The position numbers were made by a program, and so were the translations under genes. A stretch of 64,000 nt of DNA from a phage, in assembly GCA_017864995.1 (NCBI GenBank), contig GCA_017864995.1_4097.1; one strand, given 5' to 3'. A model generated the notes under the pieces. That model made no database searches, was not told the DNA's origin, and saw nothing but the letters and a program-made list of their open reading frames with translations. Shown piece after piece: positions 6,290 to 41,033 of the stretch (positions are counted from its first letter, which is position 1; every line of letters begins with the position of its first letter).

Positions 6290-8230
6290 TAGACAGGGGA
6301 AGCTCCGCAGGGAAAGCATTGGACAGGCTTTAACATATGTTATATATGTTAAAATTCAGCCTGGACAAATGCGATCACTAGGATTCTCCCCAGGCTAAAC
6401 CCCGTAATCATATGTAGTCATAAGTAATCATATATAAACATTTATATGAGCACCGTAGAATCACAGAATGATTATATATGATTCAGTACTGATTATTATA
6501 GACAAGATTACTCAAGAATGCTAGGGAAGGATTCAGTACTGCCCCAAAAGTATTCAGTACTGAAGGTGTCGATATGCCACTAAGTAGGCAGAGGAAGTCT
6601 GCCGTACTTTGTAGTTTCCAAGCTCCTTTTCCAATTTGCAAATTACATCAAATGTAATCAAAAGTAATCACGCAATGATTAGTACTGAATTATTACTTTC
6701 ACCTTAATTACAATTACCCTTTTACCCTTCGGGGTAAAATTCAATTACCCCTTGAGGCTCCAGCAAAAAGTTGGTTAGTACTCCATCCTAAATCTCGATC
6801 CTAAAAATTTTGGAGTACCTATGAAATAAAAGTTGGATCTTCGAAAGTTGAAATTTACGTTGGGACGTTTATGATTTGTGGGATATAATGATGTTTGTAG
6901 TCGGGTAGTTCTCAAGAATATCAGTACTGAAAGATGAAAGAAAGTTATTGACTTTATGATTCAGTACTGTATAATGTTCTACATAGGGTGATGAGTTGCT
7001 GCGAACAATTCATTTACTCTACCTCCTGTCGTGAGACAGTACAGAAAAGATAGTTCCTCCTGTGGTGGTGGTACATCTTTTTGAACCTCATATGAAAATC
7101 GTAATAACAGTACTGATATTAACAGAATGGTGTCAGTACTGATTTTAATCTAAAGCATTATGCCACCAGCTTGTGCTGGTGGATTCCCTCTAACAGTATT
7201 CAGTACTACATGATGGTCTTCATCCTCCTAGGGTAACATAGTGAGGGCTATGATGGCAGTACTGAATACTCCCTTTCAAAAGATAGATCTATGGTATAGT
7301 ACTGACGGATTTTGGGTGTAGTTACCCTGGATGGATTTTGGACGTAGATATGTCTAGCCCTCCAGAAGTCTGGAAGTAAAGATGGCTATCCATCTAGACG
7401 GCTAAACGGCTAGATTTCTGGATGGCTGGATGGCTAGACGTTTGGACGGCTAAACGGCTAGATGGTTACACGTCTGGAAGTATAGACGGCTAAATCAAAA
7501 TTTTATTTTGTTTTTTCCAATAGTTCCCCTACCGCGTGGGGATAGTTTCCCCGCAGTATCTGGTGTTAGATTTTTCTGAATCTGGAATCATTATCTTATA
7601 AACTGGGGGCAATGTCAACGACCTGGACGGATATTTTTAAAAATTTTTTCAGTACTGAATTTTGGGCGTAACTATGCACCCGGTGGGCTTGAGTCTTTCT
7701 CGACTTGATGGAACTATTATACAGTACTGAAAAAATAAAGCAATACCCTGGAAGCAAAAAAGTTTTAATTAATTTGCTTGCTATCCTGGGCCGGACTATG
7801 GTACTATATTTCAGTACTGAGAAAGTGCGTTTACCTGCTAGGGTGCGGGAGTGTATCCTTTTTTTATATCTTGAATTTTGGGCGTAATTCCGCACCCTCT
7901 GGGGTTTCCGCTTTCTCGCGTCTATGTAGTAATTATACGCTTTTTCAGGATCAAGTCAATACCTAAAAACAAAATAATTGAAAATAATTTAACGCGTTTA
8001 AACTGCCCGTAACGCCCTGGAATGATTGGAATGGTGCAAATGTATAGCTTAGGTGTACTAATGCGTTAGAATGCGTCTGAGGCCGTTTTACGGGGTATAG
8101 GGATGATTTAGTGGATTGATTCAGTACTGAATAATAGTACTACTATATAGAAAGATAGTTCCCCTGGATGGTTGCAGTACTGAATGATAGTTTCCCTATA
8201 TAGAAAGAAAACTATTTTAAAAGTATTTGT
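6290..8230. other. ~2 kb non-coding hub with dense palindromes and repeats
   Basis: no RBS-supported ORF; many CAGTACTG palindromes; hairpins incl. TTTTACCC-ttcg-GGGTAAAA at 6720-6739; track ORFs here rejected. Confidence 0.5.
7360..7500. repeat. iteron-like direct repeats (GGCTA core)
   Basis: about 8 copies of r-GA-y-GGCTA-r incl. ACGGCTAAACGGCTAGAT x2 and GTCTGGAAGTA-A/T-AGA-y-GGCTA x2. Confidence 0.5.
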
Positions 8231-10005: not shown

Positions 10006-10252
10006 GCAGTTTACAAATCTTTACAATTGCCGGTATTGACTTATTTTGTCAGTACTGGCATAATGTATTCATTGGCAGATAAGCCGTAGCCCATAGGGTG
10101 CGGGAGTGTATCTATAGCAAAATTAGTTTAGTATAGTTACAATTGTGCACCCGGTGGGTTAGCTGTTGTCATGGGGTATATTATGCCAGTACTTGATAAT
10201 GCTGTCAATACTTTTTTACTATTCAGTACTGAAAACTATTTTTAAAAAGTAC

Positions 10253-16094: not shown

Positions 16095-16238
16095 ATGAAT
16101 CCAACAGGTTTAAACTATAAAAGTTGTTCGGCATTTACGAAAGCAAATAAAGCGAATGCACGTAAAGCGAAAGTACAAGAATACATCAAGCAAGGCATGA
16201 CGCGAAAGGCGGCGATTCTAAAAGCTAAAAATAAATGA
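16095..16238 (+). CDS. small basic protein (47 aa)
   Basis: MNPTGLNYKSCSAFTKANKANARKAKVQEYIKQG; abuts upstream ORF. Confidence 0.4.
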   Translation: MNPTGLNYKSCSAFTKANKANARKAKVQEYIKQGMTRKAAILKAKNK

Positions 16239-16459
16239 AAAAAGTGGTTGACTCCGGTCAGCCATTTTGCTATTATATATTCATTGAGAGATAGCTCACT
16301 AGCCCACAGGGTGCATAAGTGTATCTATTATATAAGTATTGAGTACTGAAAACTATTTTAAAAGTATTTGTAGAAAGTACTTGCAAACTATCTCAATAAG
16401 CGTATAATGTTTTACATCGAAAGGGGAAACGGTTTCCCCTGGTAATAAGGAAACGAATC

Positions 16460-17706: not shown

Positions 17707-17919
17707 TTGACAATGATTAGCATGAAATCAGTACAAAAACAAATAGAAACATTATCAAAAATTAAACGTAAACAGTACTCGTTAGAATATACAATCAATG
17801 GTAACTATCATCTAATGAAAGAGAATAATTTCATTGTCATTGATGAATCATTGCAAGTTATTAGTATAGTACTGAAAGCATTAATCAATGACAGAAAAAA
17901 AATTAAAATAATCTATTGA
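17707..17919 (+). CDS. hypothetical protein (70 aa)
   Basis: ORF only; weak RBS and no clear promoter. Confidence 0.3.
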   Translation: MTMISMKSVQKQIETLSKIKRKQYSLEYTINGNYHLMKENNFIVIDESLQVISIVLKALINDRKKIKIIY

Positions 17920-18240
17920 CAATATCCTCCAGTACTGGCATAATACTTACATCAAGACGAGAACGTCACTAACCCATAGGGTGCACAAATGTAACTATAT
18001 AATATCGATCAATAAATGATCAAAAAAGTACTGGATCAATTTAGCATAAGGCGTATAATTCTGATCAATTCTTGATCAAAGGCAATATACGCAGTTGAAT
18101 TTATATAGACAGTACAAAGGCGTTACTATCCGTGGTAATGCTGGTGGATATGTAGTATCATGTGGTTTGAATAAGATTAGCACTAGTAGTATTATTGTAG
18201 CATTACAGTACTATAGTATTTTTATAATGAGGTTAAAATA

Positions 18241-19270: not shown

Positions 19271-19483
19271 ATGCAAGGTCAACTAATCGTTCGTAAATGG
19301 TCTGATACTAACGAAAAACCGTGGGATGTACAATACATCGCCCCCAATGGTGAATCCAGATATCAACCAGGTGTAACGCATAGTACTGAGCAATTCGCCG
19401 CCGCTCATCGCGAACGTCTGTTACAATCAATGCAGCAAGGTTCCGGTGAAAAATTCATTCAGGATCATTGGCTGAAAGATTAA
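19271..19483 (+). CDS. hypothetical protein (70 aa)
   Basis: MQGQLIVRKW; promoter plus hairpin upstream. Confidence 0.55.
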   Translation: MQGQLIVRKWSDTNEKPWDVQYIAPNGESRYQPGVTHSTEQFAAAHRERLLQSMQQGSGEKFIQDHWLKD

Positions 19484-19569
19484 AAAGTACTTGCACAGTA
19501 CTGAATAAAGTGTATAATGTTTTATATCGGAAGGGGAATAGTTCCCCTCCGAACAAAGAGGAAAGTATA

Positions 19570-19743
19570 ATGGTCCAGGTAGAATTAACAGTACTGAAAG
19601 ATCTGTTTTATCGGATTGGTACTACTGGCGAATATCCGAAGGGTGATAATGCAAAACTTTACGTATCACTCGACTTATGGCAACGCGAACAATTAGCAAC
19701 AGCCTGGCGTAAAGGCAAAGCAGATAGCGAGGTGAAAGCATGA
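19570..19743 (+). CDS. hypothetical protein (57 aa)
   Basis: start MVQVELTVLK after RBS AAAGAGGAAAG; track start 19468 lies in promoter. Confidence 0.5.
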   Translation: MVQVELTVLKDLFYRIGTTGEYPKGDNAKLYVSLDLWQREQLATAWRKGKADSEVKA

Positions 19744-19889
19744 AAGAATTCTTATTTGAAGTAGTGTTTCAAGGTGTCGGCAATAACCAACTGATTCGAT
19801 CAAGTGGTTATAATGTTAACCAGGCATGGAATAACATTAAACAAATGTACCCGAACGCTATCACATATCGCAACCCGAAAGAAGTTTAA
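19740..19889 (+). CDS. hypothetical protein (49 aa)
   Basis: MKEFLFEVVFQGVGNN; ATGA overlap with upstream stop. Confidence 0.4.
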   Translation: MKEFLFEVVFQGVGNNQLIRSSGYNVNQAWNNIKQMYPNAITYRNPKEV

Positions 19890-20204
19890 AAAATAATTGA
19901 AAAAGGGATTGACTCCGGTCAGTCCCTTTGCTATTATATACGCATAGAAACAAATCAGCCCACCGGGTGCATAAATGTATCTATTGTTTGCTGGTGGCTA
20001 GTACTGAAAACTATTTTTAAAAAGTACTTGCATTGTACTTATAATCAAGTATAATGTTTTACATCAGGACGGGGAACGAAATAAGTAACCCCGTTAAGTA
20101 GTCCAGGAGTAAGACATACGAAAAACTCCCCTGATAAAATAGTTTGACAATAGAAAGTAAACGAGTATAATACTTACATCAACCACTGATAAGGAAACAT
20201 AAAA

Positions 20205-20480
20205 ATGCGGATTCTACTGACAGCTAACGAAATCGAACAAGTACTGACTACTAACCTGGAAGACTGGAAACGTGAAGCAGATATCCAGGCGGTTCAATGG
20301 TTAAATGATAAGTTAACGCCGGATGACTTAAGCAAGATTGTAGATCCTCAATTCTACGAAGATATCCACGACACCGCGTTAAGCGTCGAGGATGTACTAG
20401 ATAAGCACTTTATTGATACTGATTTGCAGGTTTACGGTCGTAAAAACTTTATCACTATTCACGACATTTACAATAATTAA
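20205..20480 (+). CDS. hypothetical protein (91 aa)
   Basis: MRILLTANEIEQ; downstream of leader element copy 2 and a second promoter. Confidence 0.55.
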   Translation: MRILLTANEIEQVLTTNLEDWKREADIQAVQWLNDKLTPDDLSKIVDPQFYEDIHDTALSVEDVLDKHFIDTDLQVYGRKNFITIHDIYNN

Positions 20481-20567
20481 GTATTGACAAAGTATCTTAG
20501 TACTGTATAATAGTTTACATCGAGAGGGGGGAATGGTTCCCCTCCTAACTAAAAGAGAGAAATAAAA

Positions 20568-20750
20568 ATGGCTAAGTGCACTATCTGCAAGAAAGAAATA
20601 GTATTAGTTCCAAGTGCCCGTGAACGTGCCGCTCGGTTCGGTGGCAAAGCGTCAGACTATACAAAAATGTTTACTACCCATACAGCTTGCCAGGTAGCAA
20701 AACGTTCACAAGAAAGCGTAGAATTAATGCGTAAACTTTCCAAAAAATAA
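20568..20750 (+). CDS. small Cys-containing protein (possible zinc ribbon)
   Basis: MAKCTICKKE...HTAC; promoter plus hairpin upstream. Confidence 0.5.
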   Translation: MAKCTICKKEIVLVPSARERAARFGGKASDYTKMFTTHTACQVAKRSQESVELMRKLSKK

Positions 20751-20838
20751 GTATTGACAAAGTATCTTAGTACTGTATAATAGTTTACATCAAGTGAGGG
20801 GAAACGGTTCCCCTCCTAACAAAGAGAGAGAAATAAAA

Positions 20839-21162
20839 ATGGCTATGATCCTTGCCCAGAAAGTAGAATTGAAAATTGTAACCTCCTTTGACATTAACGT
20901 TAATCGGTGGACTGATTCACACGGCAATACTTACCACTCTTGCTACGTGTCTGCGTTAATTGGCGACCGCTGGGAAGACCTGGGACACGAAACCTTTACA
21001 TACGGTTACGGTACACAAGGCGAATACACGGGCTTGGAGATCATTAAAGAAACCGTTATAGGTTTCAACCCGAAAGAAAAAGTTATTCACCGCATCGAGG
21101 AAGAGATCAACAAAGAAATAACAGTTCGCTACCACGATGTAAAACGTAAGAAAGACATGTAA
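20839..21162 (+). CDS. hypothetical protein, paralog of 14346-14669
   Basis: MAMILAQKVEL..NRWTDSHGNTYHSC..FTYGYG..VKRKKDM. Confidence 0.6.
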   Translation: MAMILAQKVELKIVTSFDINVNRWTDSHGNTYHSCYVSALIGDRWEDLGHETFTYGYGTQGEYTGLEIIKETVIGFNPKEKVIHRIEEEINKEITVRYHDVKRKKDM

Positions 21163-21257
21163 TAGAATCCATTTAAAGTACTATTTGACATTGCCCAGAT
21201 AGTACTTTATAATAGACTCTAACTTGTAGTACTAACTCAACCAATAGGATGTATACC

Positions 21258-21653
21258 ATGATTACTAAATTCTACGCTACCCGTGAAGCTGCCCGTATTG
21301 TTGCACGCGAGGAAGGAGCAGCATTTAAAGACATGGGAACGACAGCACCGAAAGGTCAACGCTGGGCCGTACAGTTCAAAGAAATCTCTGATATTGTGAA
21401 TTCACCTGAGCCAGTACTAACAGCAGCAGAACTAAAACGAGCGGATATGCTGGCGGCAATACTTGACGCACAAGATGAGTTTATCGCTGATTCTGATATC
21501 AAAGTACAGGTAAACCACACCGCATGGACTCACGCGGATCACCTGGCAAACCTTAAGCGTCCAAGTGAACTGATTCGCAACCAGAAAGAGATCCGACATG
21601 ATCGTAAGGGTAATCGTGTAACAGTATACAGTAAACGCCGCCAGGTTATCTAA
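21258..21653 (+). CDS. hypothetical protein, paralog of 9421-9687
   Basis: MITKFYATREAARIVAREEGAAFKDMG...RKGNRVTVYSKRR. Confidence 0.6.
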   Translation: MITKFYATREAARIVAREEGAAFKDMGTTAPKGQRWAVQFKEISDIVNSPEPVLTAAELKRADMLAAILDAQDEFIADSDIKVQVNHTAWTHADHLANLKRPSELIRNQKEIRHDRKGNRVTVYSKRRQVI

Positions 21654-21675
21654 TAACTTGCAGTACTAACAACAC

Positions 21676-21700
21676 GGCGGGATCAGTTCCCGCCTTTTTT
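21676..21700 (+). terminator. rho-independent terminator
   Basis: GGCGGG-atcagtt-CCCGCC then TTTTTT. Confidence 0.65.
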
Positions 21701-21714
21701 ATAGGACAAACAAA

Positions 21715-21969
21715 ATGATTAAGGTTCAACTATATAAAGATAACATCTTACGGGTACACTATAAAGCACCGAAGAGAATCATCACAAAGGCCGTACAGCT
21801 TGCTAATGAGTTTATTAATGGTAACCTATTACCTAGGAAGTTAAGCAACGGGAAACTGCGTGTAATCGACGTGGACACTAACAACAGGATAGTAATCGAG
21901 AACACAGGAAAGATAAACCTTTATGAGCATCAACAATACAATAAGAAAATAAAACTAATATCACGTTGA
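21715..21969 (+). CDS. hypothetical basic protein (84 aa)
   Basis: MIKVQLYKDN; RBS AGGA. Confidence 0.5.
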   Translation: MIKVQLYKDNILRVHYKAPKRIITKAVQLANEFINGNLLPRKLSNGKLRVIDVDTNNRIVIENTGKINLYEHQQYNKKIKLISR

Positions 21970-22022
21970 CAGTACTCAATTGTTTTAGTACTATGTACAC
22001 ATACCAACACGGGAGAAACAAA

Positions 22023-22241
22023 ATGAAATTATCTAAAATCGAAAAGAAAACTATTGATGAAGCAGTTAAGCACGGTTATACCTTTCGTAATGATTCACAT
22101 TTTACCAATTTTCAACAAGGGTATCGTACTATTAAAAAACTAATTGACAAAGGTTTATTAGTTGAAGTCAATAACGGTAACGGTATCGAGTATCAACCAA
22201 CACAGGACGCATTTTATTTTAAGAAATATAATATTATCTAA
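22023..22241 (+). CDS. hypothetical protein (72 aa)
   Basis: start MKLSKIEKK; shares a duplicated ~60-nt promoter/leader with 22299 gene. Confidence 0.5.
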   Translation: MKLSKIEKKTIDEAVKHGYTFRNDSHFTNFQQGYRTIKKLIDKGLLVEVNNGNGIEYQPTQDAFYFKKYNII

Positions 22242-22298
22242 TTGACAGTACTCAAATGTTTTAGTACTATATGTACATACCAACACGGGGGAAACAAA

Positions 22299-22541
22299 AT
22301 GATTACTTTAGAAAAACGTATCAAAGAAACTACATCGCTGGTGGAACTGTTAACAGTACTCAAATGTAAAACAACACCATTCAGCACGCCGGACTTTATT
22401 AATATGGTTGATGTTAATGGTCGCTATCGTATCACGGTCGAACAAGGAGCGGCGAAAGTATTCAGTACTAAAAACACGAAGGAAGTGATCCACGCCGTTA
22501 ATGTTAAAAAAGTAGTTGCCATTGATAGTAAAGTACTGTAA
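22299..22541 (+). CDS. hypothetical protein (80 aa)
   Basis: start MITLEKRIKE; promoter/leader 22243-22301 near-identical to 21966-22025. Confidence 0.5.
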   Translation: MITLEKRIKETTSLVELLTVLKCKTTPFSTPDFINMVDVNGRYRITVEQGAAKVFSTKNTKEVIHAVNVKKVVAIDSKVL

Positions 22542-22572
22542 TATAGTTTCATTAACTCAAGGAGAACATGCA

Positions 22573-23157
22573 ATGCGTAATTATACAAAATTCATCCGTA
22601 CACTGTCAGAAATGGAAACCAACAAAGAGATCCTTTCAGCTTGTCGGTTAGCTGACCTGGAGATCATCGGTGCTGGTTCTTCCCGTATAGTTTTCGCTTT
22701 AAATGATCGGTTAGTGATTAAGGTCGCGAATTGTGATGCGGGTGTCGAACAAAATGAAACTGAATGTAAGGTATGGAATTTTTTAGACTATGACCGCCCT
22801 CAGTTGAAACAGTACTTTGCAAAGGTGCATATGCATTTATGCGATCCTGATAATATGTTTATCGTTATGGATCGGTTGAGTACTGCAAGCAAAGGCAGTG
22901 TGAAGCACGTAAACGCGTGCAATGAATTAAAGTACAATATTAAACGTAATGCAATCGAACGCCAGCACCGCTTTGCTGATGCACTACAACACGTTGATGA
23001 TACATTATCAACACTAACGATAAGAGATATCAGAAAACAGAATATCGGCCAGGATCGTAATGGACTTATTAAAGTACTTGATTACGGTTTAACCAGCAAT
23101 ATCTGGAATCAGTACTATAAAAAGCGTGATGTGGCAGCAAGTAAAGTAACACGATAA
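22573..23157 (+). CDS. putative protein-kinase-like protein
   Basis: IGAGSSRIVF (Gly-rich loop), VIKVA (Lys), IRDIRKQNIG (HRD-like loop), LDYG (DFG-like); RBS AAGGAGAA. Confidence 0.4.
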   Translation: MRNYTKFIRTLSEMETNKEILSACRLADLEIIGAGSSRIVFALNDRLVIKVANCDAGVEQNETECKVWNFLDYDRPQLKQYFAKVHMHLCDPDNMFIVMDRLSTASKGSVKHVNACNELKYNIKRNAIERQHRFADALQHVDDTLSTLTIRDIRKQNIGQDRNGLIKVLDYGLTSNIWNQYYKKRDVAASKVTR

Positions 23158-23378
23158 AAAAGATTAAAAAAGGGATTGACTTCGGTCAGTCCCTTTGCTA
23201 TTATATATTCATTGAGAGATAACTCACTGACCCATAGGGTGCGGAAGTGTATCTATTATATAAGTATTCAGTACTGAAAACTATTTTTAAAAAAGTACTT
23301 GCATTGTACTTAGAATCAAGTATAATGTTTTATATCGAGAGGGGGAAATGGTTCTCCCTGGCAATAAGGAATAAAATC

Positions 23379-23600
23379 ATGACTACAATGACTTGCATTT
23401 ACGCTTCCAATCGTCTGAATGATGCGGCCTTTAATGTTGATTCAGAATATCAATGTTATCGGGATGAAAATAAAAAAGTTTTTGTAGTTGATAATAATGG
23501 TTTCCATATTGAATTGCAATCCGGCTTCACTGGCGTTGATGGTAAATCAGTATGGGGCGTACAGGATGATAAAGGTACATATCATTTTAAACGTAATTAA
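23379..23600 (+). CDS. hypothetical protein (73 aa)
   Basis: start MTTMTCIYASN after promoter plus hairpin. Confidence 0.5.
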   Translation: MTTMTCIYASNRLNDAAFNVDSEYQCYRDENKKVFVVDNNGFHIELQSGFTGVDGKSVWGVQDDKGTYHFKRN

Positions 23601-23683
23601 GTATTGACAAAGTATCTTAGTACTGTATAATAGTTTACATCAAGGGGAGAATAGTTCTCCCCAATACAATAAGGAATAAAATC

Positions 23684-24091
23684 ATGTCTACTACTACTAA
23701 TCTCGCTCGGAACATCACTAACGATAAAAATCATGCTGCAATGGTCGCTGGTTACATTGAAGCTATGCAATTCAGTACTGTACATAATGATAACGGCGAT
23801 TACCTGGAAGATTATGAGTTATCTGATGAAGCACGTCAAGCGGCGGTGATTGCATGTTCTCGCTTCATTGAGAAACACGGTAATGATCTGGAAGTAGTTC
23901 GCGGTATGTTTATTGATTACGGTTATGAGCAAGCTGGTCATGATCTGTTCCTTACCCGCGAAGGTCACGGAACTGGTTTTTGGGATCGTGGTTTAGGTCA
24001 CTATGGCGATGTATTCACGAAGTACTGCGAAGAAATCAACGTTTGCGATCCCTATGTAGGCGATGATAACTTAATCTATATGGGCGAATAA
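23684..24091 (+). CDS. hypothetical acidic protein (135 aa)
   Basis: MSTTTNLARN; promoter plus hairpin GGGGAGAA..TTCTCCCC upstream. Confidence 0.6.
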   Translation: MSTTTNLARNITNDKNHAAMVAGYIEAMQFSTVHNDNGDYLEDYELSDEARQAAVIACSRFIEKHGNDLEVVRGMFIDYGYEQAGHDLFLTREGHGTGFWDRGLGHYGDVFTKYCEEINVCDPYVGDDNLIYMGE

Positions 24092-24178
24092 AAGTATTTG
24101 ACAAAGTATATCAGTACTGTATAATAGTTTACATCAAGGGGAGAACTATTCTCCCCACCAATAAAAGGAAACAAAATT

Positions 24179-24451
24179 ATGTCCAGCTACTCCGCTACTA
24201 TGATCATTAAAGATATGAACGGTAATCCTACTTCTGCTGGTGGATCATTTGGAAATATTAACTTAGATGGGCGGTTATCCATGCAATCAGCCATCGATGC
24301 AGCGAAAGAAGTTTTTAAGAATGAATGTACTGTTAGTAAGCTGGATTATATGGGATTCGCTATCGAGAAAACTACTCGTTTTGTGAACTACAAAAATCCA
24401 CTGATGATTGATACTAACCTGAAAGCTAACGAAGTGGGGTACTTATTATGA
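24179..24451 (+). CDS. hypothetical protein (90 aa)
   Basis: MSSYSATMIIKD; promoter plus hairpin upstream. Confidence 0.55.
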   Translation: MSSYSATMIIKDMNGNPTSAGGSFGNINLDGRLSMQSAIDAAKEVFKNECTVSKLDYMGFAIEKTTRFVNYKNPLMIDTNLKANEVGYLL

Positions 24452-24639
24452 CAGTAGAAGAAGTTAAAAAAGTACTGGCAGTACTACGATATCATAATCA
24501 TTGCAAGGTGAAGAATGATCCTGATTATCTTGATTCATCCCTGGAGGAAGACACCTTGAACGCTATAAGCCATATGCAGACATTAGCAAAGCGTATGACT
24601 GAAAAGAACATGCCGGACTATATCGGAAATAAAATTTAA
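24448..24639 (+). CDS. hypothetical protein (63 aa)
   Basis: MTVEEVKKVLAV; ATGA overlap with upstream stop. Confidence 0.5.
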   Translation: MTVEEVKKVLAVLRYHNHCKVKNDPDYLDSSLEEDTLNAISHMQTLAKRMTEKNMPDYIGNKI

Positions 24640-24726
24640 AAAGTACTTGCATTGTAGTTAGATTAACGTATAATGTTTTATATCGAGAGGGGGAAATGGT
24701 TTCCCCTCAAGTCCAGGAGATACACC

Positions 24727-24990
24727 ATGAACACTATCGAAATCACTATCAATGCACACGTATACGACAACGTAGTACTGCAAACTACTATGACCGCCAA
24801 TGATACCAGTACTTTGCGGAATACTGTTATTAGTGCCGTATGTGCCGCTATCGGTGATGTCGCCCTGGAAAATGCAAAACACGTAAACGATGGTTTCACT
24901 ATGTGCAAACGTGATAACGCAAAACATATCATCGTGGAAGGTTACGGCGGTGTAGAATTTAATGTTTATATGAAAAAAGTACTTGCATAA
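24727..24990 (+). CDS. hypothetical protein (87 aa)
   Basis: start MNTIEITINAH after RBS CAGGAGA; track start 24673 lies in promoter. Confidence 0.55.
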   Translation: MNTIEITINAHVYDNVVLQTTMTANDTSTLRNTVISAVCAAIGDVALENAKHVNDGFTMCKRDNAKHIIVEGYGGVEFNVYMKKVLA

Positions 24991-25057
24991 TAACTAAAAC
25001 AAAGTATAATGTTTTGCATAGGGGGAGATATCCTCCCCCACTAAAAGGAGTAATAAA

Positions 25058-25282
25058 ATGGCTAACTTTGATGAACTGATGCGGGAAGTAGCTAACCTGG
25101 CAGAAGAGAAGAAATCATTCGATTCTATCTATAACACCGCTCACCGTGATTCAGTACTGGCATGTAACCAGGAACAAAAAGATGAACTAATCGCCACCTA
25201 TCATGAAGCATGGAAGTACTACCGACAATGGGAGAAAGAAGAAAGTGAGTCTACCATTGACGGCCTCAATAATCTAATCTAA
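25058..25282 (+). CDS. hypothetical protein (74 aa)
   Basis: MANFDELMREVA; promoter plus hairpin GGGGGAGATATCCTCCCCC upstream. Confidence 0.55.
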   Translation: MANFDELMREVANLAEEKKSFDSIYNTAHRDSVLACNQEQKDELIATYHEAWKYYRQWEKEESESTIDGLNNLI

Positions 25283-25358
25283 AAGTTTTATTTCAGTACT
25301 ATTGACATAGCTTGATAGTACTGATGTAATAACTTTACTAACTACAAGGGGAAACATA

Positions 25359-25907: not shown

Positions 25908-26152
25908 CAAAAAAGAATAAAAAAAGGGATTGACTCCGGTCAGTCCCTTTGCTATTATATACGCATAGACAAAAACTAGCCCACAGGGTGCATAGGTGTA
26001 TCCAAAATATATAGTTAATAACGGTGAGTAACTATCTGCTGGTGGAGTGAAAACTATTAATAAAAAAGTATTGACAAAGTATATCAGTACTGCGATAATG
26101 TATCTCGTAGGGCGGCAATGGTGCGACGGCCCACAAAGTTAGGAGATTCACC

Positions 26153-27881: not shown

Positions 27882-28087
27882 AAACTATAACACGAACCCA
27901 ATCATTCGGTCTTATCTTGAAATACATGGACTTAATGTTTGATATCAGCAAAGACCTTTCTAAAACTGAAATCCAAGTTGCAAGAGCAGAGATCCGCATG
28001 TTGGCTGTACTGAACACAAACCATCAGGAAGAGTATGTTGACGATTGGATTCATTTTTTAATAGAAGATATTAAGAGTAAACTATGA
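27878..28087 (+). CDS. Fam2 small protein
   Basis: AVLNTNHQEEYV. Confidence 0.55.
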   Translation: MKTITRTQSFGLILKYMDLMFDISKDLSKTEIQVARAEIRMLAVLNTNHQEEYVDDWIHFLIEDIKSKL

Positions 28088-28296
28088 TTTTTTTAACACC
28101 AGAAGAATATAAGATACGTTTTGTTTCTGTCCAGAATAAAATCTTAATTATATACAATTCAAATGCAGACCTTAACTTATCAAGGGTATTAGAAAAAGAT
28201 TTACTTATGGGTGCATTTTTGGATACAGACTTTCAGGAGTATTATGTAGGGGAATACTTAATTGCACTCCAGAATTACATTAAGAGTAAACTATGA
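28084..28296 (+). CDS. Fam2 small protein
   Basis: GAFLDTDFQEYYV. Confidence 0.55.
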   Translation: MIFLTPEEYKIRFVSVQNKILIIYNSNADLNLSRVLEKDLLMGAFLDTDFQEYYVGEYLIALQNYIKSKL

Positions 28297-28505
28297 ATAG
28301 CATTAACTCAAATCTATATACCGAACGCGTCGCTGCAAGACAACTTGAAATTCTCATAGTATATGAAGAGACTGATGATTTAAACTTAGCATTAGTATTG
28401 GAAAATGATATACTATTGGGTGCATTCCTCGGCACAGATTATCAGGAGCACTTCTTGAATGAGTATATAATTGCACTCCAGAAATACATTAAGAGCAAAC
28501 TATGA
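28293..28505 (+). CDS. Fam2 small protein
   Basis: GAFLGTDYQEHFL; close paralog of 28084. Confidence 0.55.
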   Translation: MNSINSNLYTERVAARQLEILIVYEETDDLNLALVLENDILLGAFLGTDYQEHFLNEYIIALQKYIKSKL

Positions 28506-28720
28506 AACATTTAAGTAATTCCGAGAAGAATAAAATTATCATTGCTGCAATAAACAAATATTTTACACTTCCTCACACAGAAGGTTTATGTGTAAGGGAA
28601 CACAGGATAAACACCACCGATATACGCATGATGGCTGTACTGGGGACGAACTTTCAGGAAGAGTATGTTGTTGCACACATAGTTGCCCTCACTGATCTAA
28701 TAAGGGACAAATGTAAATGA
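28502..28720 (+). CDS. Fam2 small protein
   Basis: AVLGTNFQEEYV. Confidence 0.55.
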   Translation: MKHLSNSEKNKIIIAAINKYFTLPHTEGLCVREHRINTTDIRMMAVLGTNFQEEYVVAHIVALTDLIRDKCK

Positions 28721-28974
28721 AACACTTAACTGATGATGAATTTGAAACTATAATTCGTAAACTAACCCCCATCACAAGGATAGTCTACGGTGACCCCAGC
28801 CTTACATGGAACCAAATGCGAGCTAAAGTTAATGAGCTATGGTTGCTGTACTTTATGGGGACTCAATATCAAGATAAGTTTTGCACAGAATATATCGAAC
28901 AATTAACGAATGTTATACAGGATAAACTAGATGATTATTTGCTCACAAAACATGAAGACTTTATCAGGAGTTGA
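28717..28974 (+). CDS. Fam2 small protein
   Basis: YFMGTQYQDKFC. Confidence 0.55.
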   Translation: MKHLTDDEFETIIRKLTPITRIVYGDPSLTWNQMRAKVNELWLLYFMGTQYQDKFCTEYIEQLTNVIQDKLDDYLLTKHEDFIRS

Positions 28975-29203
28975 GTATCAAACTGCCCTATTCTCTTTAA
29001 TCCATGCCCTTAGAAAAAACAATGCCTTATATGGTGCACCTGAAGTGGATGTTATCAACGGTGAACTTTATCTTATGAAATTCATTGGAACAAACTATCA
29101 AGATCTGTTCATTCAACGATACTTATCAGCATTAAGAAACCAAATCCAATATAAAACCATCAAGGCAAAAAAAGAATGGAATAAACAATGCGACACAGAC
29201 TAA
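28931..29203 (+). CDS. Fam2 small protein
   Basis: KFIGTNYQDLFI; alternative start at 28952. Confidence 0.5.
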   Translation: MIICSQNMKTLSGVEYQTALFSLIHALRKNNALYGAPEVDVINGELYLMKFIGTNYQDLFIQRYLSALRNQIQYKTIKAKKEWNKQCDTD

Positions 29204-29439
29204 ATCACAAAATGTATTGTAAACTATTGCAGACACTGGCACAGAAACACTATGACACGGTATCTGGAATATTACCCTATGATATCATGCGTTTACTTCA
29301 CTGTGAGGCCGAGATGCTTGTACTGATGACAGGCACAGATAAAAAAGCAATTGCCAAATCAATAGATATGTTCATCGAAGCACAATGTCAACACATTAGA
29401 ACCGAGATATGGAGGCGAGAGAATGATAACACTAAATGA
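29188..29439 (+). CDS. Fam2-like small protein (degenerate motif)
   Basis: LMTGTDKKAI in motif position. Confidence 0.45.
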   Translation: MRHRLNHKMYCKLLQTLAQKHYDTVSGILPYDIMRLLHCEAEMLVLMTGTDKKAIAKSIDMFIEAQCQHIRTEIWRRENDNTK

Positions 29440-29638
29440 GTATCAGTATCATTGGAGGTTACAAGCTATAAGAAGGAAAGTTGTTAGTATTTCTTTAGAC
29501 AAGTCTATTGCACAAGAGGACAAATGTGTTATAATAGCTGAAATGAAGTTGGGTGCTTTCGTAGGAACAAACTATCAAAACATCTACACTGACGTATTGT
29601 TAAGTGCCTTACGTAACAAGGTGATATCAAAAGAATGA
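29423..29638 (+). CDS. Fam2 small protein
   Basis: AFVGTNYQNIYT. Confidence 0.55.
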   Translation: MITLNEYQYHWRLQAIRRKVVSISLDKSIAQEDKCVIIAEMKLGAFVGTNYQNIYTDVLLSALRNKVISKE

Positions 29639-29853
29639 GAAAATTACAAGGCTTTGAATACATCAGACTCCTGAAAACATGTGCCAACAGAAGAGTAAAG
29701 ATTCAATCTGATAAGAGCATCCCTGCCAACCTAAAACATGCATTGATAGCTGAACTCTATGCAGGGGCACTCATAGGGACAAACTATCAACAAATGTATA
29801 TAGACATGTGGGTTGATGCATTAGTCAAGGAGGTCAAAAGTAAATGCAAATGA
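29635..29853 (+). CDS. Fam2 small protein
   Basis: ALIGTNYQQMYI. Confidence 0.55.
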   Translation: MRKLQGFEYIRLLKTCANRRVKIQSDKSIPANLKHALIAELYAGALIGTNYQQMYIDMWVDALVKEVKSKCK

Positions 29854-30062
29854 TTAATTTAAGTAAAGATGAATATTATGAACGTCTTGCAAAAACTTAT
29901 CCAGCACGTAACGCCGTTTATAATAGTAACATTATTGAACGCTCAAAGAAGTTGATTGTAGTAAATGAGATTAAGATGCTTTCAGTCTTAGGAACAAACT
30001 ATCAAGAGAATGCTGTACTGTTGTTAATTGATGCCCTCAAGAGAGAGATACAAAGTAAATGA
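29844..30062 (+). CDS. Fam2 small protein
   Basis: SVLGTNYQENAV; N-term MQMINLSKDEY. Confidence 0.55.
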   Translation: MQMINLSKDEYYERLAKTYPARNAVYNSNIIERSKKLIVVNEIKMLSVLGTNYQENAVLLLIDALKREIQSK

Positions 30063-30307
30063 TTAATTTATCTTTCCATGAATATCAAAAACGTTTAAAT
30101 GCATCAAGGGATATAAGGATTCAAATCTTTAATAACAAAAGATTGAAACCTGACACCAGAAGAATCAAAATAATAGAAGCAGAGTTATGCAACTTCCTGG
30201 GGACGAACCATCAGGAAGGTAAGATAAAAAACTATCTTAGAGAACTCATGATTTGTATCGAAAATAAATGTGAGGTTGATGAACATGCAAATGATCAATT
30301 TAAGTAA
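30059..30307 (+). CDS. Fam2 small protein
   Basis: NFLGTNHQEGKI. Confidence 0.55.
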   Translation: MINLSFHEYQKRLNASRDIRIQIFNNKRLKPDTRRIKIIEAELCNFLGTNHQEGKIKNYLRELMICIENKCEVDEHANDQFK

Positions 30308-30548
30308 AGATGAATATACCGAGCGTATGACAAAAATTACACACAAACGTAATACAATCTATCACGACCAAAAAATTCAACACAGTAAGAAAATGATTAT
30401 GATGCGTGAGTTAAAGATGGGTGTATTCTTGGGAACAAACTATCAAGAGCCAGAAGTAAATCGCTTAATCGCGGAGTTACTACTGGAAATCAGAGGTAAG
30501 CTGTACTTTCATCAAATGACCCAACCACTGAGGTGTACTGATCGATGA
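30285..30548 (+). CDS. Fam2 small protein
   Basis: VFLGTNYQEPEV; start MQMINLSKDEY as in 29844 gene (track 30270). Confidence 0.5.
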   Translation: MQMINLSKDEYTERMTKITHKRNTIYHDQKIQHSKKMIMMRELKMGVFLGTNYQEPEVNRLIAELLLEIRGKLYFHQMTQPLRCTDR

Positions 30549-30796
30549 ATGCGATGAATAAAATTAATAACATCAGAATAGCAGAAAGATTTGATAGACT
30601 TGGGGAAGCTCTGAGACGATACGATAAGGAATATGGTCATTTGAGCTTTTCTATAGAAAAGAGATATGAACTTGAAGCAGAGTTTAAAATGCAGTTCCTT
30701 TTAGGTACACAGTATCAAAACCAATATGTAGAAAAATGGATTTCACTTTTAATCCAGACAATTTACGTAAGGAACATTAAATGCAAAATGAAATGA
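30545..30796 (+). CDS. Fam2 small protein
   Basis: FLLGTQYQNQYV. Confidence 0.55.
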   Translation: MNAMNKINNIRIAERFDRLGEALRRYDKEYGHLSFSIEKRYELEAEFKMQFLLGTQYQNQYVEKWISLLIQTIYVRNIKCKMK

Positions 30797-31017
30797 TATA
30801 CTTAACACATGATGAGTTAACAGAAAGACTAGATAAATCCAAAAAACTTACAAAATATCTTCCACACAACCCAAACCAAACCCCAGCAGAAAGGAGTGCA
30901 GAAGTTTTATTTCATCAACTATCATACCTTCTTGGAACTGATAGACAAGAGTATCACATTGAACGTATAATTAAATATCTTAAAATTACTATTATGGAAA
31001 AAGTAAATGCAAAGTGA
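30781..31017 (+). CDS. Fam2 small protein
   Basis: YLLGTDRQEYHI; N-term MQNEMIYLTHDE. Confidence 0.55.
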   Translation: MQNEMIYLTHDELTERLDKSKKLTKYLPHNPNQTPAERSAEVLFHQLSYLLGTDRQEYHIERIIKYLKITIMEKVNAK

Positions 31018-31237
31018 AATGATATACTTAACGAATGAAGAATTTCAAGAGAAGATGTTAAAAGCCAATAACATTACTCTTAAGTTCGTTCCAAATCAAT
31101 CAATATATGAAATGTCTGCGAATGTATTGTTTCAGAAGCTACCATACGTTCTTGGAACTGATAAACAAGAATTTATGGTTCAAAATATGATTGAACATCT
31201 TGTAATGAGTATTAAGGAAAAAGTAAATGCAAAATGA
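31007..31237 (+). CDS. Fam2 small protein
   Basis: YVLGTDKQEFMV; N-term MQSEMIYLTNEE. Confidence 0.55.
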   Translation: MQSEMIYLTNEEFQEKMLKANNITLKFVPNQSIYEMSANVLFQKLPYVLGTDKQEFMVQNMIEHLVMSIKEKVNAK

Positions 31238-31484
31238 AATGAAATACTTAACAGACGATGAGTTAAAAGAACGATTAATTAAATCCAGAAAACTTACAAA
31301 TCAACTTCCAAACGACACAAACAAGTCACATGCCGAAAGGAGTGCAGAAGTTTTATACATTCAACTCCTGTACTTTCTTGGAACTGACAGACAAGAGTAT
31401 TACATTGAAAGTATGCTTCGATATCTTAAATTCTCTATAAAGGAAAAGATACATGCTCAAGAATTTAAAAATCCTAACAGTTAA
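31227..31484 (+). CDS. Fam2 small protein
   Basis: YFLGTDRQEYYI; N-term MQNEMKYLTDDE. Confidence 0.55.
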   Translation: MQNEMKYLTDDELKERLIKSRKLTNQLPNDTNKSHAERSAEVLYIQLLYFLGTDRQEYYIESMLRYLKFSIKEKIHAQEFKNPNS

Positions 31485-31695
31485 TGAATATCATAAGATT
31501 GTAATGAAAACTAATAGTGCAATTTCTAAAAAATCAAACCCAAAGTACATACTGGAACACACATTTGAAGAACGTCAATTAGCTTTAGTTGAAGCAAAAC
31601 TTCTTGCACTCCTAGGAACAAACTACCAAGAAGAATACATCAGAAAACTAATATACCTTTTAACTAAACACATCAGGAAAAGAAAAAAAGCATGA
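31453..31695 (+). CDS. Fam2 small protein
   Basis: ALLGTNYQEEYI. Confidence 0.55.
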   Translation: MLKNLKILTVNEYHKIVMKTNSAISKKSNPKYILEHTFEERQLALVEAKLLALLGTNYQEEYIRKLIYLLTKHIRKRKKA

Positions 31696-31922
31696 AGCAC
31701 TTGACAGATGATGAACATGGGCTTATAGTAATGGATGTAATCAACATCGAATACAAAAAGTTGATACGCTACCGTTGTTATGAAGATAAGCAACTCGTTC
31801 TAGCAGAACAGAAGTTGTTTCGACTCTTAAACACAAACTTCCAAGCACAATACGAAGAATCGTATATGTACCTTTTGGCGAGGAAAGCAAAAAGAGATTA
31901 TGAAAATTTTAAACCACAGTGA
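31692..31922 (+). CDS. Fam2 small protein
   Basis: RLLNTNFQAQYE. Confidence 0.5.
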   Translation: MKHLTDDEHGLIVMDVINIEYKKLIRYRCYEDKQLVLAEQKLFRLLNTNFQAQYEESYMYLLARKAKRDYENFKPQ

Positions 31923-32115
31923 ACAAACAGAATTGTTAATCTTTAATACAAGTAAATTCTTAAACATAACATTGTCTGATATAGATGAGGATGAAAAAGA
32001 GTTACTTAGAGCAGATTTAAGAGTTCTTTTATATGTTGGAACTAACTTCCAAGAGCAATTCGTTGAGGACTACATCGATGAACTTAAAGAATCTGTACTG
32101 AGAACATGCAAATGA
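31900..32115 (+). CDS. Fam2 small protein
   Basis: LYVGTNFQEQFV. Confidence 0.55.
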   Translation: MKILNHSEQTELLIFNTSKFLNITLSDIDEDEKELLRADLRVLLYVGTNFQEQFVEDYIDELKESVLRTCK

Positions 32116-35725: not shown

Positions 35726-36101
35726 AAAAGTAATATTTCTTTTGAATACAAGAAGCTCTTTATATAAGGAGTTCAAGGATATTAAAACATCGTGTAATAT
35801 AGATTTTTTTGAAACCATACATGCGGAGTTTCGTGATTTAATTGCAGATGCATTGTTTGAATTTTCCGAGAAATATCAAGGTACAGTCTTCGGTGTTAAG
35901 AATGTTCTTCGTCCAAGTACAGGTACAAGGAAGATTGAGTTATCACATTTTACAATTGGTAACAACGATTTATTCAGTTATAACCCCAGTACATCTTTAT
36001 ATTTTATTCCTGTTTCAGACAAAAATCATCCTATTCATTACGGATGGATTATATCTTATACAATAAATGGAACGGAGTATCCTATTAAATGGCACGATTA
36101 G
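35691..36101 (+). CDS. hypothetical protein (136 aa)
   Basis: MNMNPEIVQDLK; no family motif. Confidence 0.5.
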   Translation: MNMNPEIVQDLKKVIFLLNTRSSLYKEFKDIKTSCNIDFFETIHAEFRDLIADALFEFSEKYQGTVFGVKNVLRPSTGTRKIELSHFTIGNNDLFSYNPSTSLYFIPVSDKNHPIHYGWIISYTINGTEYPIKWHD

Positions 36102-36240
36102 GGTGTGAAGATTATAATATGAATATATTATTAAGAAATATTAATGCAGATTATTGTGTATGGGTTAAGAATAGAGATATGATGTATTATGATTTTTATT
36201 TAGATTGTGCCATTAAGCGTTTTTTAAGAGAAGAACATTA

Positions 36241-36423
36241 ATGAAAACCGTTAATACAAAAGCAATAAATGATTTAAATGATTCTTTATTAGTAAGTATC
36301 AAGATGTATTACAATATACATTTAAAGGGTGGTATAGATAATTACAATTATTATCTTTCATTAGTTACAATAGAACATTTAAATTATATAGATCAGTTAT
36401 TACATCCAAATCCACCAAATTAA
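36241..36423 (+). CDS. hypothetical protein (60 aa)
   Basis: MKTVNTKAINDL; no motif. Confidence 0.4.
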   Translation: MKTVNTKAINDLNDSLLVSIKMYYNIHLKGGIDNYNYYLSLVTIEHLNYIDQLLHPNPPN

Positions 36424-36434
36424 GGAATACCAAT

Positions 36435-36995
36435 ATGAATGATATTGAGTTATTGGTACATAAGATTTGCACAATATCGTTAGTGCTGAACAATGCGAAT
36501 ACAGTACAGAGTTCCCTTTTAAGAATTAATAAAGTTGGGAGTAGTTTATATTTGGAAGTAAAAGCTGGTTTTGCAGGACAGTACAATGATAAAATCAAAG
36601 AAGAAGTTAAGGGAAATGAAGATGCTTACATTGAGGTTTGTGCAACAGTTGGTTCAAATCCAATTTCAGTATCACCTTTAATGCGAAATGAAAATCCAGA
36701 ATTTGATTCCAGTTTTGAAGGTTATTTGTGGTACAATTATGGTGATGATTATTTTATATATCAGAATTCCAAAACGGATTATAGTGAAGAAGGTATAAAA
36801 TTCATTGATCCTTACAATGAAGCAGAAGTATTTCAGACATCCCTAATATACAATACAAATCAAATGAAGTATCTTATGTTGTTTAGTACAATGCATTTGA
36901 ATCCATTGAAAGATAATTTAAAATTTTTCATTCGTTTAGAATTAGTTGATATTGCTTATGATCTTTTAATGCAAGGATATAGTTATGAAGTATAA
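36435..36995 (+). CDS. Fam3 protein
   Basis: NEAEVFQTSLIYN; C-term DLLMQGYSYEV shared with 37072 gene. Confidence 0.6.
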   Translation: MNDIELLVHKICTISLVLNNANTVQSSLLRINKVGSSLYLEVKAGFAGQYNDKIKEEVKGNEDAYIEVCATVGSNPISVSPLMRNENPEFDSSFEGYLWYNYGDDYFIYQNSKTDYSEEGIKFIDPYNEAEVFQTSLIYNTNQMKYLMLFSTMHLNPLKDNLKFFIRLELVDIAYDLLMQGYSYEV

Positions 36996-37065
36996 AATGC
37001 TTTATACAAAAGATATGATTTATGTTGAATTAGAAGACAATGACGATGTATCCATCAATAGGTAA
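36985..37065 (+). pseudogene. truncated remnant of MKYKxLYT..IYVELE-type Fam3 gene
   Basis: 26-aa ORF MKYKMLYTKDMIYVELEDNDD matches N-termini of 37568 and 37885 genes, then stops. Confidence 0.35.
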
Positions 37066-37071
37066 TAATAT

Positions 37072-37578
37072 ATGAATGAGATAGAATTATTAGCACACAA
37101 GATTAGTACAGTAATGCTTATGCTCAAGAATAATCATTCTATGCATAAGTACATTTTTATAGGTGATTTACGCATAGAAGATAGATATGATAAATTATCG
37201 TTTATGTTTAAAGATGAAAGTAATGCAAAAGTTTGTTTTGCAGCATTTGCCCAAGGCAATCCAGAACAAGCATCTCCTGTTATATACGAAAATAGTGAAG
37301 GGTATTTGTGGGTCAACACAAACGATTATTTCTTTTATGTTTTGAAACAAGATGATGAAGTAGAAGCACGAATTGATTTAATTGATATTAGTTCAGATTG
37401 TAGTGCTGAATTATTTCAGAAATCGTTATTATACAGTCCTCGTCAAATACATTATCTAAAGTTATTCAGTTCATTGTACGCGAATCCTTTAATTAAGGGT
37501 TTTAAATTTTATATCAAAATTCCGCACCTTTCAAACGTTTATGATTTATTAATGCAAGGATATAGTTATGAAGTATAA
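37072..37578 (+). CDS. Fam3 protein
   Basis: SAELFQKSLLYS; paralog of 36435. Confidence 0.6.
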   Translation: MNEIELLAHKISTVMLMLKNNHSMHKYIFIGDLRIEDRYDKLSFMFKDESNAKVCFAAFAQGNPEQASPVIYENSEGYLWVNTNDYFFYVLKQDDEVEARIDLIDISSDCSAELFQKSLLYSPRQIHYLKLFSSLYANPLIKGFKFYIKIPHLSNVYDLLMQGYSYEV

Positions 37579-37879
37579 AATTCTTTATACATTAACATTA
37601 ATATATGTAGAATTAGAATCCGATTCAGATGCATGGAATTTGGTTAAAGAGGTCGATACCAATCAATGGTACATGGCAAATTTAGACGAACATGTTGTTA
37701 CGGATTATTTTATAGATTTTAATACATTATCTGAAGAAGAATTTTTCCAAATGCAATTGGTGGTTGACATGTACGGACATGACATGGTAACATTAAGAAA
37801 TATACAGAAAGTCGTTAATGAATTCCAAAGCAAGAAAGATTATGAGGTAGGAGCGTATTATGACATCGACGTACAGTGA
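37568..37879 (+). CDS. Fam3 protein
   Basis: SEEEFFQMQLVVD; N-term MKYKILYTLTLIYVELE. Confidence 0.6.
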   Translation: MKYKILYTLTLIYVELESDSDAWNLVKEVDTNQWYMANLDEHVVTDYFIDFNTLSEEEFFQMQLVVDMYGHDMVTLRNIQKVVNEFQSKKDYEVGAYYDIDVQ

Positions 37880-37884
37880 AAGCA

Positions 37885-39571: not shown

Positions 39572-39589
39572 GATATGGGCTTTTTTTGT

Positions 39590-39618: not shown

Positions 39619-39643
39619 GTGTAATCATTTTAAGGAGATACCT

Positions 39644-40824: not shown

Positions 40825-40825
40825 T

Positions 40826-41020: not shown

Positions 41021-41033
41021 GGTTGAGGCACAC

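Follow-up and report, generated by a model that had tools for sequence, protein, structure and literature searches.

Two small neighbouring genes of a jumbo coliphage, whose products are unrelated, are preceded by almost the same 60 nucleotides (nt), which raises the question of what the repeated element does and how it bears on the genes that stand behind it. The locus occupies positions 21,715 to 22,541 of a 64,000-nt stretch of phage DNA (contig GCA_017864995.1_4097.1 of assembly GCA_017864995.1), the whole of which was analysed and is referred to here as the window. We put a probability of roughly 0.8 on the following answer: the repeats are copies of one early promoter unit, recombination between these direct repeats deletes the module that holds the first gene, gene conversion acts on the copies, and the region resembles those shaped by PeSLs, the repeated promoter and stem-loop units of T4-type phages.

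The window comes from an Asteriusvirus jumbo coliphage of the 121Q/PBECO4 group. The 42 phage records (310-386 kb) that megablast matched to positions 21000-24000 belong to jumbo phages of Escherichia and Salmonella in the genus Asteriusvirus, such as 121Q, PBECO4, G17, phAPEC6 and fEgEco12; for the 30 records listed, identity is 92-98.5%. Nucleotide searches find the locus twice in records holding both terminal repeats, and it therefore lies inside the direct terminal repeat; its genes are small, on the + strand throughout and nearly all annotated as hypothetical. The two genes seem to lie in an early, ORFan-rich region near the terminus of the Asteriusvirus genome, early timing being a prediction from the sequence. 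Among relatives of this phage group, CBB, a RaK2-like phage, is reported to have RpoD-like promoters clustered in regions of short hypothetical early genes, the terminal repeat included (PMC5259590), and PA5oct to depend on the host RNA polymerase and to have TTGAC/TATAATA motifs at its transcription start sites (PMC7318152).

A repeat search of the window returned the two copies as a family of two (D11) at 21956-22026 and 22232-22302, 71 nt long, 87% identical and 276 nt apart from start to start. From TTG through ATG (21966-22025 and 22242-22301), 55 of 60 positions are identical without a gap (92%), so that the near-identity described by an earlier, sequence-only reading of this DNA is real, except that it began the second copy at 22243, one base off the actual 22242. 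Even a search tolerating three mismatches finds just two occurrences in the 64 kb of the 29-nt core TTGACAGTACTCAAWTGTTTTAGTACTAT, and just two of the 26-nt leader CATACCAACACGGGRGAAACAAAATG; none of 100 shuffles gave a match to either. The parts of the locus are:

21966-21994, + strand: promoter core of unit 1, with the -35 hexamer TTGACA at 21966-21971, the -10 hexamer TACTAT at 21989-21994, and AGTACT at 21971-21976 and 21987-21992.
21995-22022, + strand: leader of unit 1, with a variable 7-nt block (the predicted start-site region), the invariant ATACCAACAC and the Shine-Dalgarno sequence GGGAG at 22011-22015.
22023-22241, + strand: gene 1, 72 amino acids, of the 121Q_306 family, a variable cargo annotated from this ATG in G17, 121Q, phAPEC6, SP27-type records and others.
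22242-22270, + strand: promoter core of unit 2, directly following the TAA of gene 1, with the -35 hexamer at 22242-22247, the -10 hexamer at 22265-22270, and AGTACT at 22247-22252 and 22263-22268.
22271-22298, + strand: leader of unit 2, with the Shine-Dalgarno sequence GGGGG at 22287-22291.
22299-22541, + strand: gene 2, 80 amino acids, of the 121Q_307 family, found wherever a genome has the unit.

Both units score as sigma-70-like in a consensus scan, with TTGACA, a 17-nt spacer and TACTAT; after the -10 hexamer each continues through the variable block, ATACCAACAC, GGGAG or GGGGG (7-8 nt upstream of the ATG) and AAACAAA to the ATG itself. The TGA of the upstream gene (21967-21969) overlaps the -35 hexamer of unit 1, the TAA of gene 1 (22239-22241) abuts that of unit 2, and the 30 nt upstream of the units are A/T-rich. 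Folding revealed no stem-loop in the 75-nt units, which fold no better than shuffles (z 0.15 and -0.07), and no structure above shuffled controls in the leader of unit 1 (z 0.15 and 0.55), and a site scan found no terminator-like site between gene 1 and unit 2. Compared over 11 two-copy phages, the segments have these nucleotide diversities:

Core from -35 to -10: 0.036 in unit 1 and 0.0 in unit 2.
Leader ATACCAACAC: 0.
The 7 nt after the -10 hexamer: 0.19-0.25.
Third codon positions of the three flanking genes: 0.18-0.26.

Core and leader are thus subject either to purifying selection or to homogenisation, and the 7-nt block at the predicted start site drifts freely. The consensus match and this conservation point to promoter activity in both units; together with a TTG reading frame that is not conserved, they bear out the earlier view of the unit as a non-coding promoter and leader.

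The TTG frame matters since the list of open reading frames (ORFs) gives the two genes nearly the same N-terminus, from TTG 21966 and TTG 22242 (MTVLNCFSTMYTYQHGRNKM and MTVLKCFSTICTYQHGGNKM, with the pattern MTVL(N/K)CFST...YQHG). This shared 19-codon beginning arises because the -35 hexamer starts with TTG and happens to be in frame in the window genome. Were the long forms real, the two proteins would have a functional 19-residue extension in common, for instance a shared targeting peptide; both TTGs are indeed in frame with the ATGs in the window and many relatives, and long forms are annotated in some GenBank records (fEgEco12, PBECO4), most annotations having the ATG start. Among 28 units extracted from the window and 15 relatives – a separate, differently built locus in phage EJP2 was taken additionally – TTG and ATG stand 57 nt apart in most, 58 nt in unit 2 of G17, phAPEC6 and Turkey5, unit 1 of A4, TH47 and EC.P1, 60 nt in unit 1 of phAPEC6 and 65 nt in unit 2 of A4. 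These length changes of 1, 3 and 8 nt put the TTG out of frame in seven of the 28 units (unit 2 of G17, phAPEC6 and Turkey5, both units of A4, TH47 and EC.P1), and in both A4 units its frame runs into a stop codon, yet the proteins downstream are conserved: gene 1 keeps the start MKLSKIEKKT (MNLSKVEKKT in A4) and gene 2 MITLEKRIKE (MINILERIKE in A4). Variation is moreover clustered in the 7-nt block rather than falling on every third base, the stretch matches a promoter consensus, and the TTG lacks a preceding Shine-Dalgarno sequence where the ATG has a good one. The long forms are thereby largely refuted and hardly credible as proteins; translation is predicted to begin at ATG 22023 for gene 1 and ATG 22299 for gene 2, and the dismissal of the shared N-termini as spurious in the sequence-only reading was justified. 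So was its statement that the products read from these ATGs are unrelated, as they have no BLASTP similarity and different predicted topologies.

What the repeat has meant for the genes becomes apparent among the relatives, which either have or lack one element:

21966-22241, + strand: 276-bp module of one unit and gene 1, whose true ends may lie anywhere within the repeat.

A sensitive search with positions 21700-22560 found 24 records that cover the whole query and a further 12, from 11 phages, that match 75-78% of it in two pieces spanning 585-588 bp as against 861 bp. This shortening equals one repeat period of 276 nt. Annotation and alignment both show that in the 11 single-copy phages the upstream ParE-like gene is followed by a single unit, and this directly by gene 2. 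The remaining unit is of more than one kind. In SP27, PBECO4, SD-2_S15 and SHEFM2K it resembles unit 2 from nt 15 on, which places the crossover within TTGACAGTACTCAA; in EC.P1 it resembles unit 1 (CAATTG...TATGTACACATACC) up to the ribosome-binding site, which places the crossover near ATACCAACACGGG; and in TH47 the middle block is of the unit 1 type and the ribosome-binding site of the unit 2 type. EC.P1 and SP27 have near-identical flanks, both clustering with the window phage, and neighbour-joining trees, built for both flanks, place the single-copy phages in among two-copy ones. The most divergent Asteriusviruses that have the locus (A4, 121Q, phAPEC6 and Turkey5) carry two copies.

The simplest reading of these comparisons would be a two-copy ancestor followed by at least two, and probably three or more, independent deletions through homologous recombination between the repeats; its recurrence is indicated because the chimeric junctions differ (at least two kinds, probably three) and the single-copy phages are scattered through the tree. 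Single-copy phages would then descend from an ancestral two-copy state. Traces of gene conversion from one copy to the other are visible as well: unit 2 of Turkey5 carries the block after the -10 hexamer of Turkey5 unit 1, and in two metagenome contigs unit 2 is unit-1-like almost throughout.

The sequence-only reading had seen in this arrangement a cassette-like exchange of cargo behind a fixed expression unit. The cassette-like part holds, inasmuch as one 276-bp period of unit and gene 1 is present or absent and chimeric units mark the junctions; an exchange of cargo behind the unit is not seen in the data at hand. A search with the 66-nt unit found it, among GenBank phages, only in 36 Asteriusvirus records, once or twice per genome copy, in IMG/VR only in 121Q, and in metagenomes in two contigs with the same two genes; nothing other than gene 1 or gene 2 follows the unit in any of them. 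Rather than alternative cargo behind the unit, the comparison of related phages thus uncovered module loss and a relocation of gene 1. The latter is seen in EJP2, which has neither the unit nor gene 2, and in which a homologue of gene 1 (70% amino acid and 83% nt identity) sits between genes like 121Q_311 and 312, flanked by two units of another family that has a stem-loop. The units around gene 1 in the window and those around its homologue in EJP2 belong to families with only short stretches in common. The slot that the homologue fills in EJP2 is empty in 121Q and holds an unrelated 264-nt gene in the window, with units of the EJP2 slot's family on both sides, so a neighbouring unit family, though not the unit studied here, does show one slot occupied by truly different cargo. 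RaK2 belongs to another genus and has, between its ParE-like and kinase-like genes, a different 423-nt gene (ORF355) behind an equivalently placed promoter; RaK2 was rejected as an outgroup, as the alignment of this promoter with the studied unit is too weak to call the two homologous.

The locus is one instance of a pattern that extends over much of its surroundings. From 6.9 to 26.1 kb, a scan of the whole window picked out some 40 strong sigma-70-like units of the + strand, which fall into a few repeat families, most having a GGGG...CCCC stem-loop between the -10 hexamer and the ribosome-binding site. Two pairs are built much like the one studied here:

23587-24156, + strand: two promoter and stem-loop units (23587-23662 and 24081-24156, spacing 494; repeat family D2) flanking the gene 23684-24091.
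24635-25043, + strand: two units (24635-24707 and 24971-25043, spacing 336; repeat family D3) flanking the gene 24727-24990.

The gene at 23684-24091 is absent from 121Q, which is offset by 495 nt there and has one unit that aligns to both window units; the slot of the gene at 24727-24990 has nothing in 121Q and is the one filled by the gene 1 homologue in EJP2. Over 18.8-27.5 kb, window and 121Q differ by five module-sized indels, of which three are extra sequence in the window (+270, +495 and +336 nt) and two in 121Q (+287 and +316 nt). Four of the five match the spacing of flanking unit repeats (270, 494 and 336 nt in the window, 316 nt in 121Q), and at these the single unit of one genome aligns to both units of the other. 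The modules in which the two differ lie at 20467-20812, 23587-24156 and 24635-25043 of the window and at 1407-1707 and 6546-6795 of the 121Q locus L019. EJP2 goes further: its locus L006 (1080-3544) holds the same small early genes as window 19271-25336 in a permuted order, namely, in window coordinates, 19271, 19888, 24668, 24448, 22017, 25118 and 23723, a true reordering of modules beyond gain and loss.

A mechanism that would link these observations is already known from other phages. PeSLs (promoter-early stem-loops), described in T4-type phages, are repeated units in which an early sigma-70-like promoter and a stem-loop lead up to the Shine-Dalgarno sequence and start codon of an ORFan; differential ORFans lie between them, a single chimeric unit stays behind once such a gene has been excised, and mini-circles can arise (Arbiol et al. 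2010, PMC2839356; Comeau et al. 2014, PMC4122927). Each copy of the unit studied here would likewise provide a host sigma-70-type promoter, a short unstructured leader, a Shine-Dalgarno sequence and an ATG, and so head its own small gene. Because the copies are direct repeats 276 bp apart, they would also be substrates for homologous recombination: unequal exchange would delete one unit with gene 1, so that gene 2 is driven by one chimeric unit, gene conversion, a non-reciprocal exchange, would homogenise the two copies, and a module could be inserted elsewhere by way of an excised circle. The same architecture would govern the roughly 40 neighbouring units, most of which also have a GC-rich stem-loop, and it is on account of this shared architecture that the region seems to behave like the PeSL-mediated hyperplastic regions of T4-type phages. 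The likeness extends to details: the unit spans an upstream stop codon, an AT-rich stretch, sigma-70-like -35 and -10 hexamers, a Shine-Dalgarno sequence and the start codon of a small ORFan; the region is plastic, gene 2 being confined to the genus and gene 1 variable; close relatives differ by module-sized indels (here 276 bp), with a single chimeric unit of at least two junction types where the module is missing; and the same genes turn up in other contexts. The differences are that the phage is an Asteriusvirus (a RaK2-like jumbo phage) and not T4-type, and that its units are studded with AGTACT.

Several points weigh against this account. The stem-loop or terminator that defines PeSLs is missing from the studied unit and present in most neighbouring units of the window, so that the former appears to work like a PeSL without full membership and the latter fit the class better. 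The -10 hexamer TACTAT matches the consensus at only four of six positions, several relatives having the better TATTAT in unit 1, and promoter activity and its timing are both read from the letters of the genome. The near-invariance of the spacer and of ATACCAACAC exceeds what a promoter needs and could reflect an additional function or plain homogenisation. The distribution of the module, finally, could also have come about by insertion of gene 1 and subsequent gene conversion, or from one deletion allele that was spread by recombination among co-infecting phages.

Other explanations of the repeat fare worse than recombining promoter units. That it is a neutral leftover of a recent tandem duplication, with no present function, might be suggested by two adjacent copies that are 92% identical; the sequence between them is, however, an unrelated gene and no duplicate, the arrangement is common to the most divergent Asteriusviruses, 121Q and A4 (about 85-88% nucleotide identity), and the cores are far more conserved than synonymous sites, all of which makes this origin exceedingly improbable. 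A dedicated site-specific system, integron-like or of the homing type, that moves the module and uses the unit as its recombination site would sit well with precise module-sized indels and with the presence of gene 1 in another slot of EJP2. Yet the junctions fall at differing places along the 60-nt homology, as expected of general homologous recombination and not of a fixed crossover, the families flanking gene 1 in the window and EJP2 have little sequence in common, and no integrase or homing-endonuclease domain was found in a scan confined to five neighbouring proteins; we consider such a system very unlikely.

The remaining alternative is that the repeat is mainly an operator, in which paired AGTACT palindromes bind a phage or host protein that silences both genes jointly, the duplication being kept for co-regulation and recombination being a side effect. 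In each unit a pair of AGTACT sites, spaced 16 nt, overlaps the -35 as well as the -10 hexamer, and the spacer is nearly invariant. The palindrome is also far from rare elsewhere: the window has 281 sites against about 21 expected (13-fold), in promoters and in genes, in all three codon frames and in the preferred context CAGTACTG, at 5.3 per kb of coding and 10.3 per kb of non-coding sequence over 1-27 kb. Sites are conserved at 86% in comparison with 121Q, as against 53-59% for control hexamers (binomial p about 1e-6 to 3e-5), and are equally enriched in the early regions of RaK2, EJP2 and 121Q. On the other side, no binding protein was identified, unit 1 of several relatives has AGTATT and is retained nonetheless, and AGTACT stands at variable positions in other promoter families and is plentiful inside genes, and hence is not specific to this unit; besides, an operator would add to the promoter function and not replace it. 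As the main role of the repeat we find it unlikely.

The palindrome itself is nonetheless a signal selected at the DNA level. It is densest in 1-27000 and 44000-48000, absent from 28001-32000 and 36001-40000 and present twice in 40001-44000; a Pfam search of ten larger ORFs from 36-64 kb, made in search of a reason for the AGTACT-free patches, gave no matches. That it is the core of the Escherichia coli SlmA binding site was considered and set aside: the preferred flanks (C before, G after) are the opposite of those of that site, and G before and C after are depleted. More tentatively, and with doubts that outweigh its attractions, the sites, which stand in nearly every other early promoter unit too and in many coding sequences of the region, may be recognised by a dedicated phage or host protein, be it a silencer or shut-off factor, an enzyme that cuts or modifies DNA, or a mediator of recombination. 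If so, the repeated units would be more than promoters with passive homology: they would belong, as its nodes, to a DNA signal that spans the genome and is conserved across RaK2-like jumbo phages, and the signal could co-regulate the early cassettes and focus their shuffling. A search of the literature turned up no paper tying AGTACT to Asteriusvirus or RaK2-like phages; so strongly selected a palindrome is more unusual than the repeat and deserves a study of its own. At 22349-22367 (+ strand), inside gene 2, a 19-nt near-copy (17 of 19) of the -35 part of the unit, GTTAACAGTACTCAAATGT (repeat family D16), encodes TVLKC, the same peptide as in the spurious N-terminus; it may be left over from an older unit, or may match by chance around AGTACT.

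Promoter units that recombine can also be set beside other modes of gene gain and loss. The morons of lambdoid phages, reportedly described by Juhala, Hendrix and colleagues in 2000, are likewise small non-essential genes with their own promoter, lodged between two genes and present or absent among relatives, and the gene 1 family too is found solitary in unrelated phages. Morons, however, typically have their own terminator and no flanking direct repeats of their promoter, whereas gene 1 and unit 2 have no terminator between them, and the precision of the loss is accounted for by the flanking repeat. Integron arrays share the succession of small unrelated genes gained and lost one by one, but integron cassettes are usually promoterless, end in attC and depend on an integrase; the present modules carry their own promoter, their junctions vary within plain homology, and the domain scan of five neighbouring proteins, with its stated limit, returned no recombinase. 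CBB and PA5oct resemble the window in that host-type promoters are concentrated in regions of short hypothetical early genes, the terminal repeat included; the passages on these promoters (PMC5259590; PMC7318152) list them and do not describe them as repeat families or recombination substrates.

The literature search brought up no description of gene shuffling by promoter units in RaK2-like or Asteriusvirus phages. The locus is a known style of phage gene shuffling in a group for which no description was found, and to those who work on phage genomes it would be no surprise. It suggests that the concept of PeSLs can be extended to RaK2-like jumbo phages, and that the stem-loop may be dispensable for the role in recombination. 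It offers a case, at the level of sequence, of how jumbo phages gain, lose and reorder small early genes, the repeated promoter units supplying both expression and portable homology. On the practical side, gene starts in some GenBank records (the TTG forms of fEgEco12 and PBECO4) can be corrected, and the 276-bp deletion lends itself to a simple assay of recombination rates in these phages, by polymerase chain reaction or read counting.

As to the genes themselves, neither gene 1 nor gene 2 has a significant match in Pfam, PHROG or PDB sequence searches. Gene 1, absent from 11 relatives, gave a single-sequence AlphaFold2 model of moderate confidence (pLDDT 71) with the topology H-E-H-H-E-E, for which Foldseek returned only weak matches to winged-helix proteins (eS10, JetB, MukE, Fur-type; best E 0.05); a winged-helix-like fold is only a suggestion from this model. 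Its family recurs at 37-57% identity in Seunavirus-type Salmonella phages, Klebsiella phages of about 140 kb, and Xylella, Bordetella and Burkholderia phages, and is thus a small gene that travels widely across unrelated phages; in SalP219, a Seunavirus, its member is a solitary gene. Gene 2, by tblastn, is confined to Asteriusvirus (36 records, all Asteriusvirus-type), and its single-sequence model is likewise of moderate confidence (pLDDT 64), with the topology H-H-E-E-E. CMSTMSU and TH47 match residues 1-71 of gene 2 only, and in TH47, an UNVERIFIED record (locus L007, about 1126-1160), gene 2 reads MITLEKRIK and then a stop, either as a pseudogene or through a sequencing error. On either side of the pair stand:

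21715-21969, + strand: upstream gene, 84 amino acids, with a ParE-like toxin domain (Pfam PF24732, E 4.6e-11, above the curated cutoff; phrog_1525).
22573-23157, + strand: kinase-like gene, 31 nt 3' of gene 2, with a weak Pkinase match (E 0.0033, below the curated cutoff; phrog_4301).

Homologues of the ParE-like gene in Klebsiella jumbo phages are annotated as YafQ-like ribonuclease toxins, and no obvious antitoxin partner co-occurs with the gene. Gene 1 was considered for this part and rejected for want of co-occurrence: 11 phages keep the ParE-like gene without gene 1, and EJP2 has gene 1 without an adjacent ParE-like gene, and indeed without a nucleotide match to one anywhere in its record. 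The kinase-like gene has its own ribosome-binding site and merely a weak promoter-like site (9/12) at 22516-22544, and is probably co-transcribed with gene 2.

Two further features of the window deserve mention. The search for known RNA families in the window found none. A run of about 35 back-to-back ORFs of 137-281 amino acids on the + strand, with stops and starts that often overlap, occupies 44322-63771; the four sampled have no Pfam match, and the run is possibly a large paralogous array. A composite element recurs at 19888-19979, 23155-23246, 25909-26000, 16235-16340, about 10036-10110 and 17916-17990, and is conserved in RaK2 (L011 2650-2745); it consists of a 12-bp hairpin (AAAGGGATTGACTCCGGTCAGTCCCTTT) containing a -35 hexamer, then TATTAT and, about 30 nt on, a conserved motif, CCCAYAGGGTGC...TGTATCTAT, with no ORF directly after it. 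The element gave no Rfam match and its CCCAYAGGGTGC repeat no covariation; it may be a terminator-promoter unit that drives a small RNA, or a protein-binding site.

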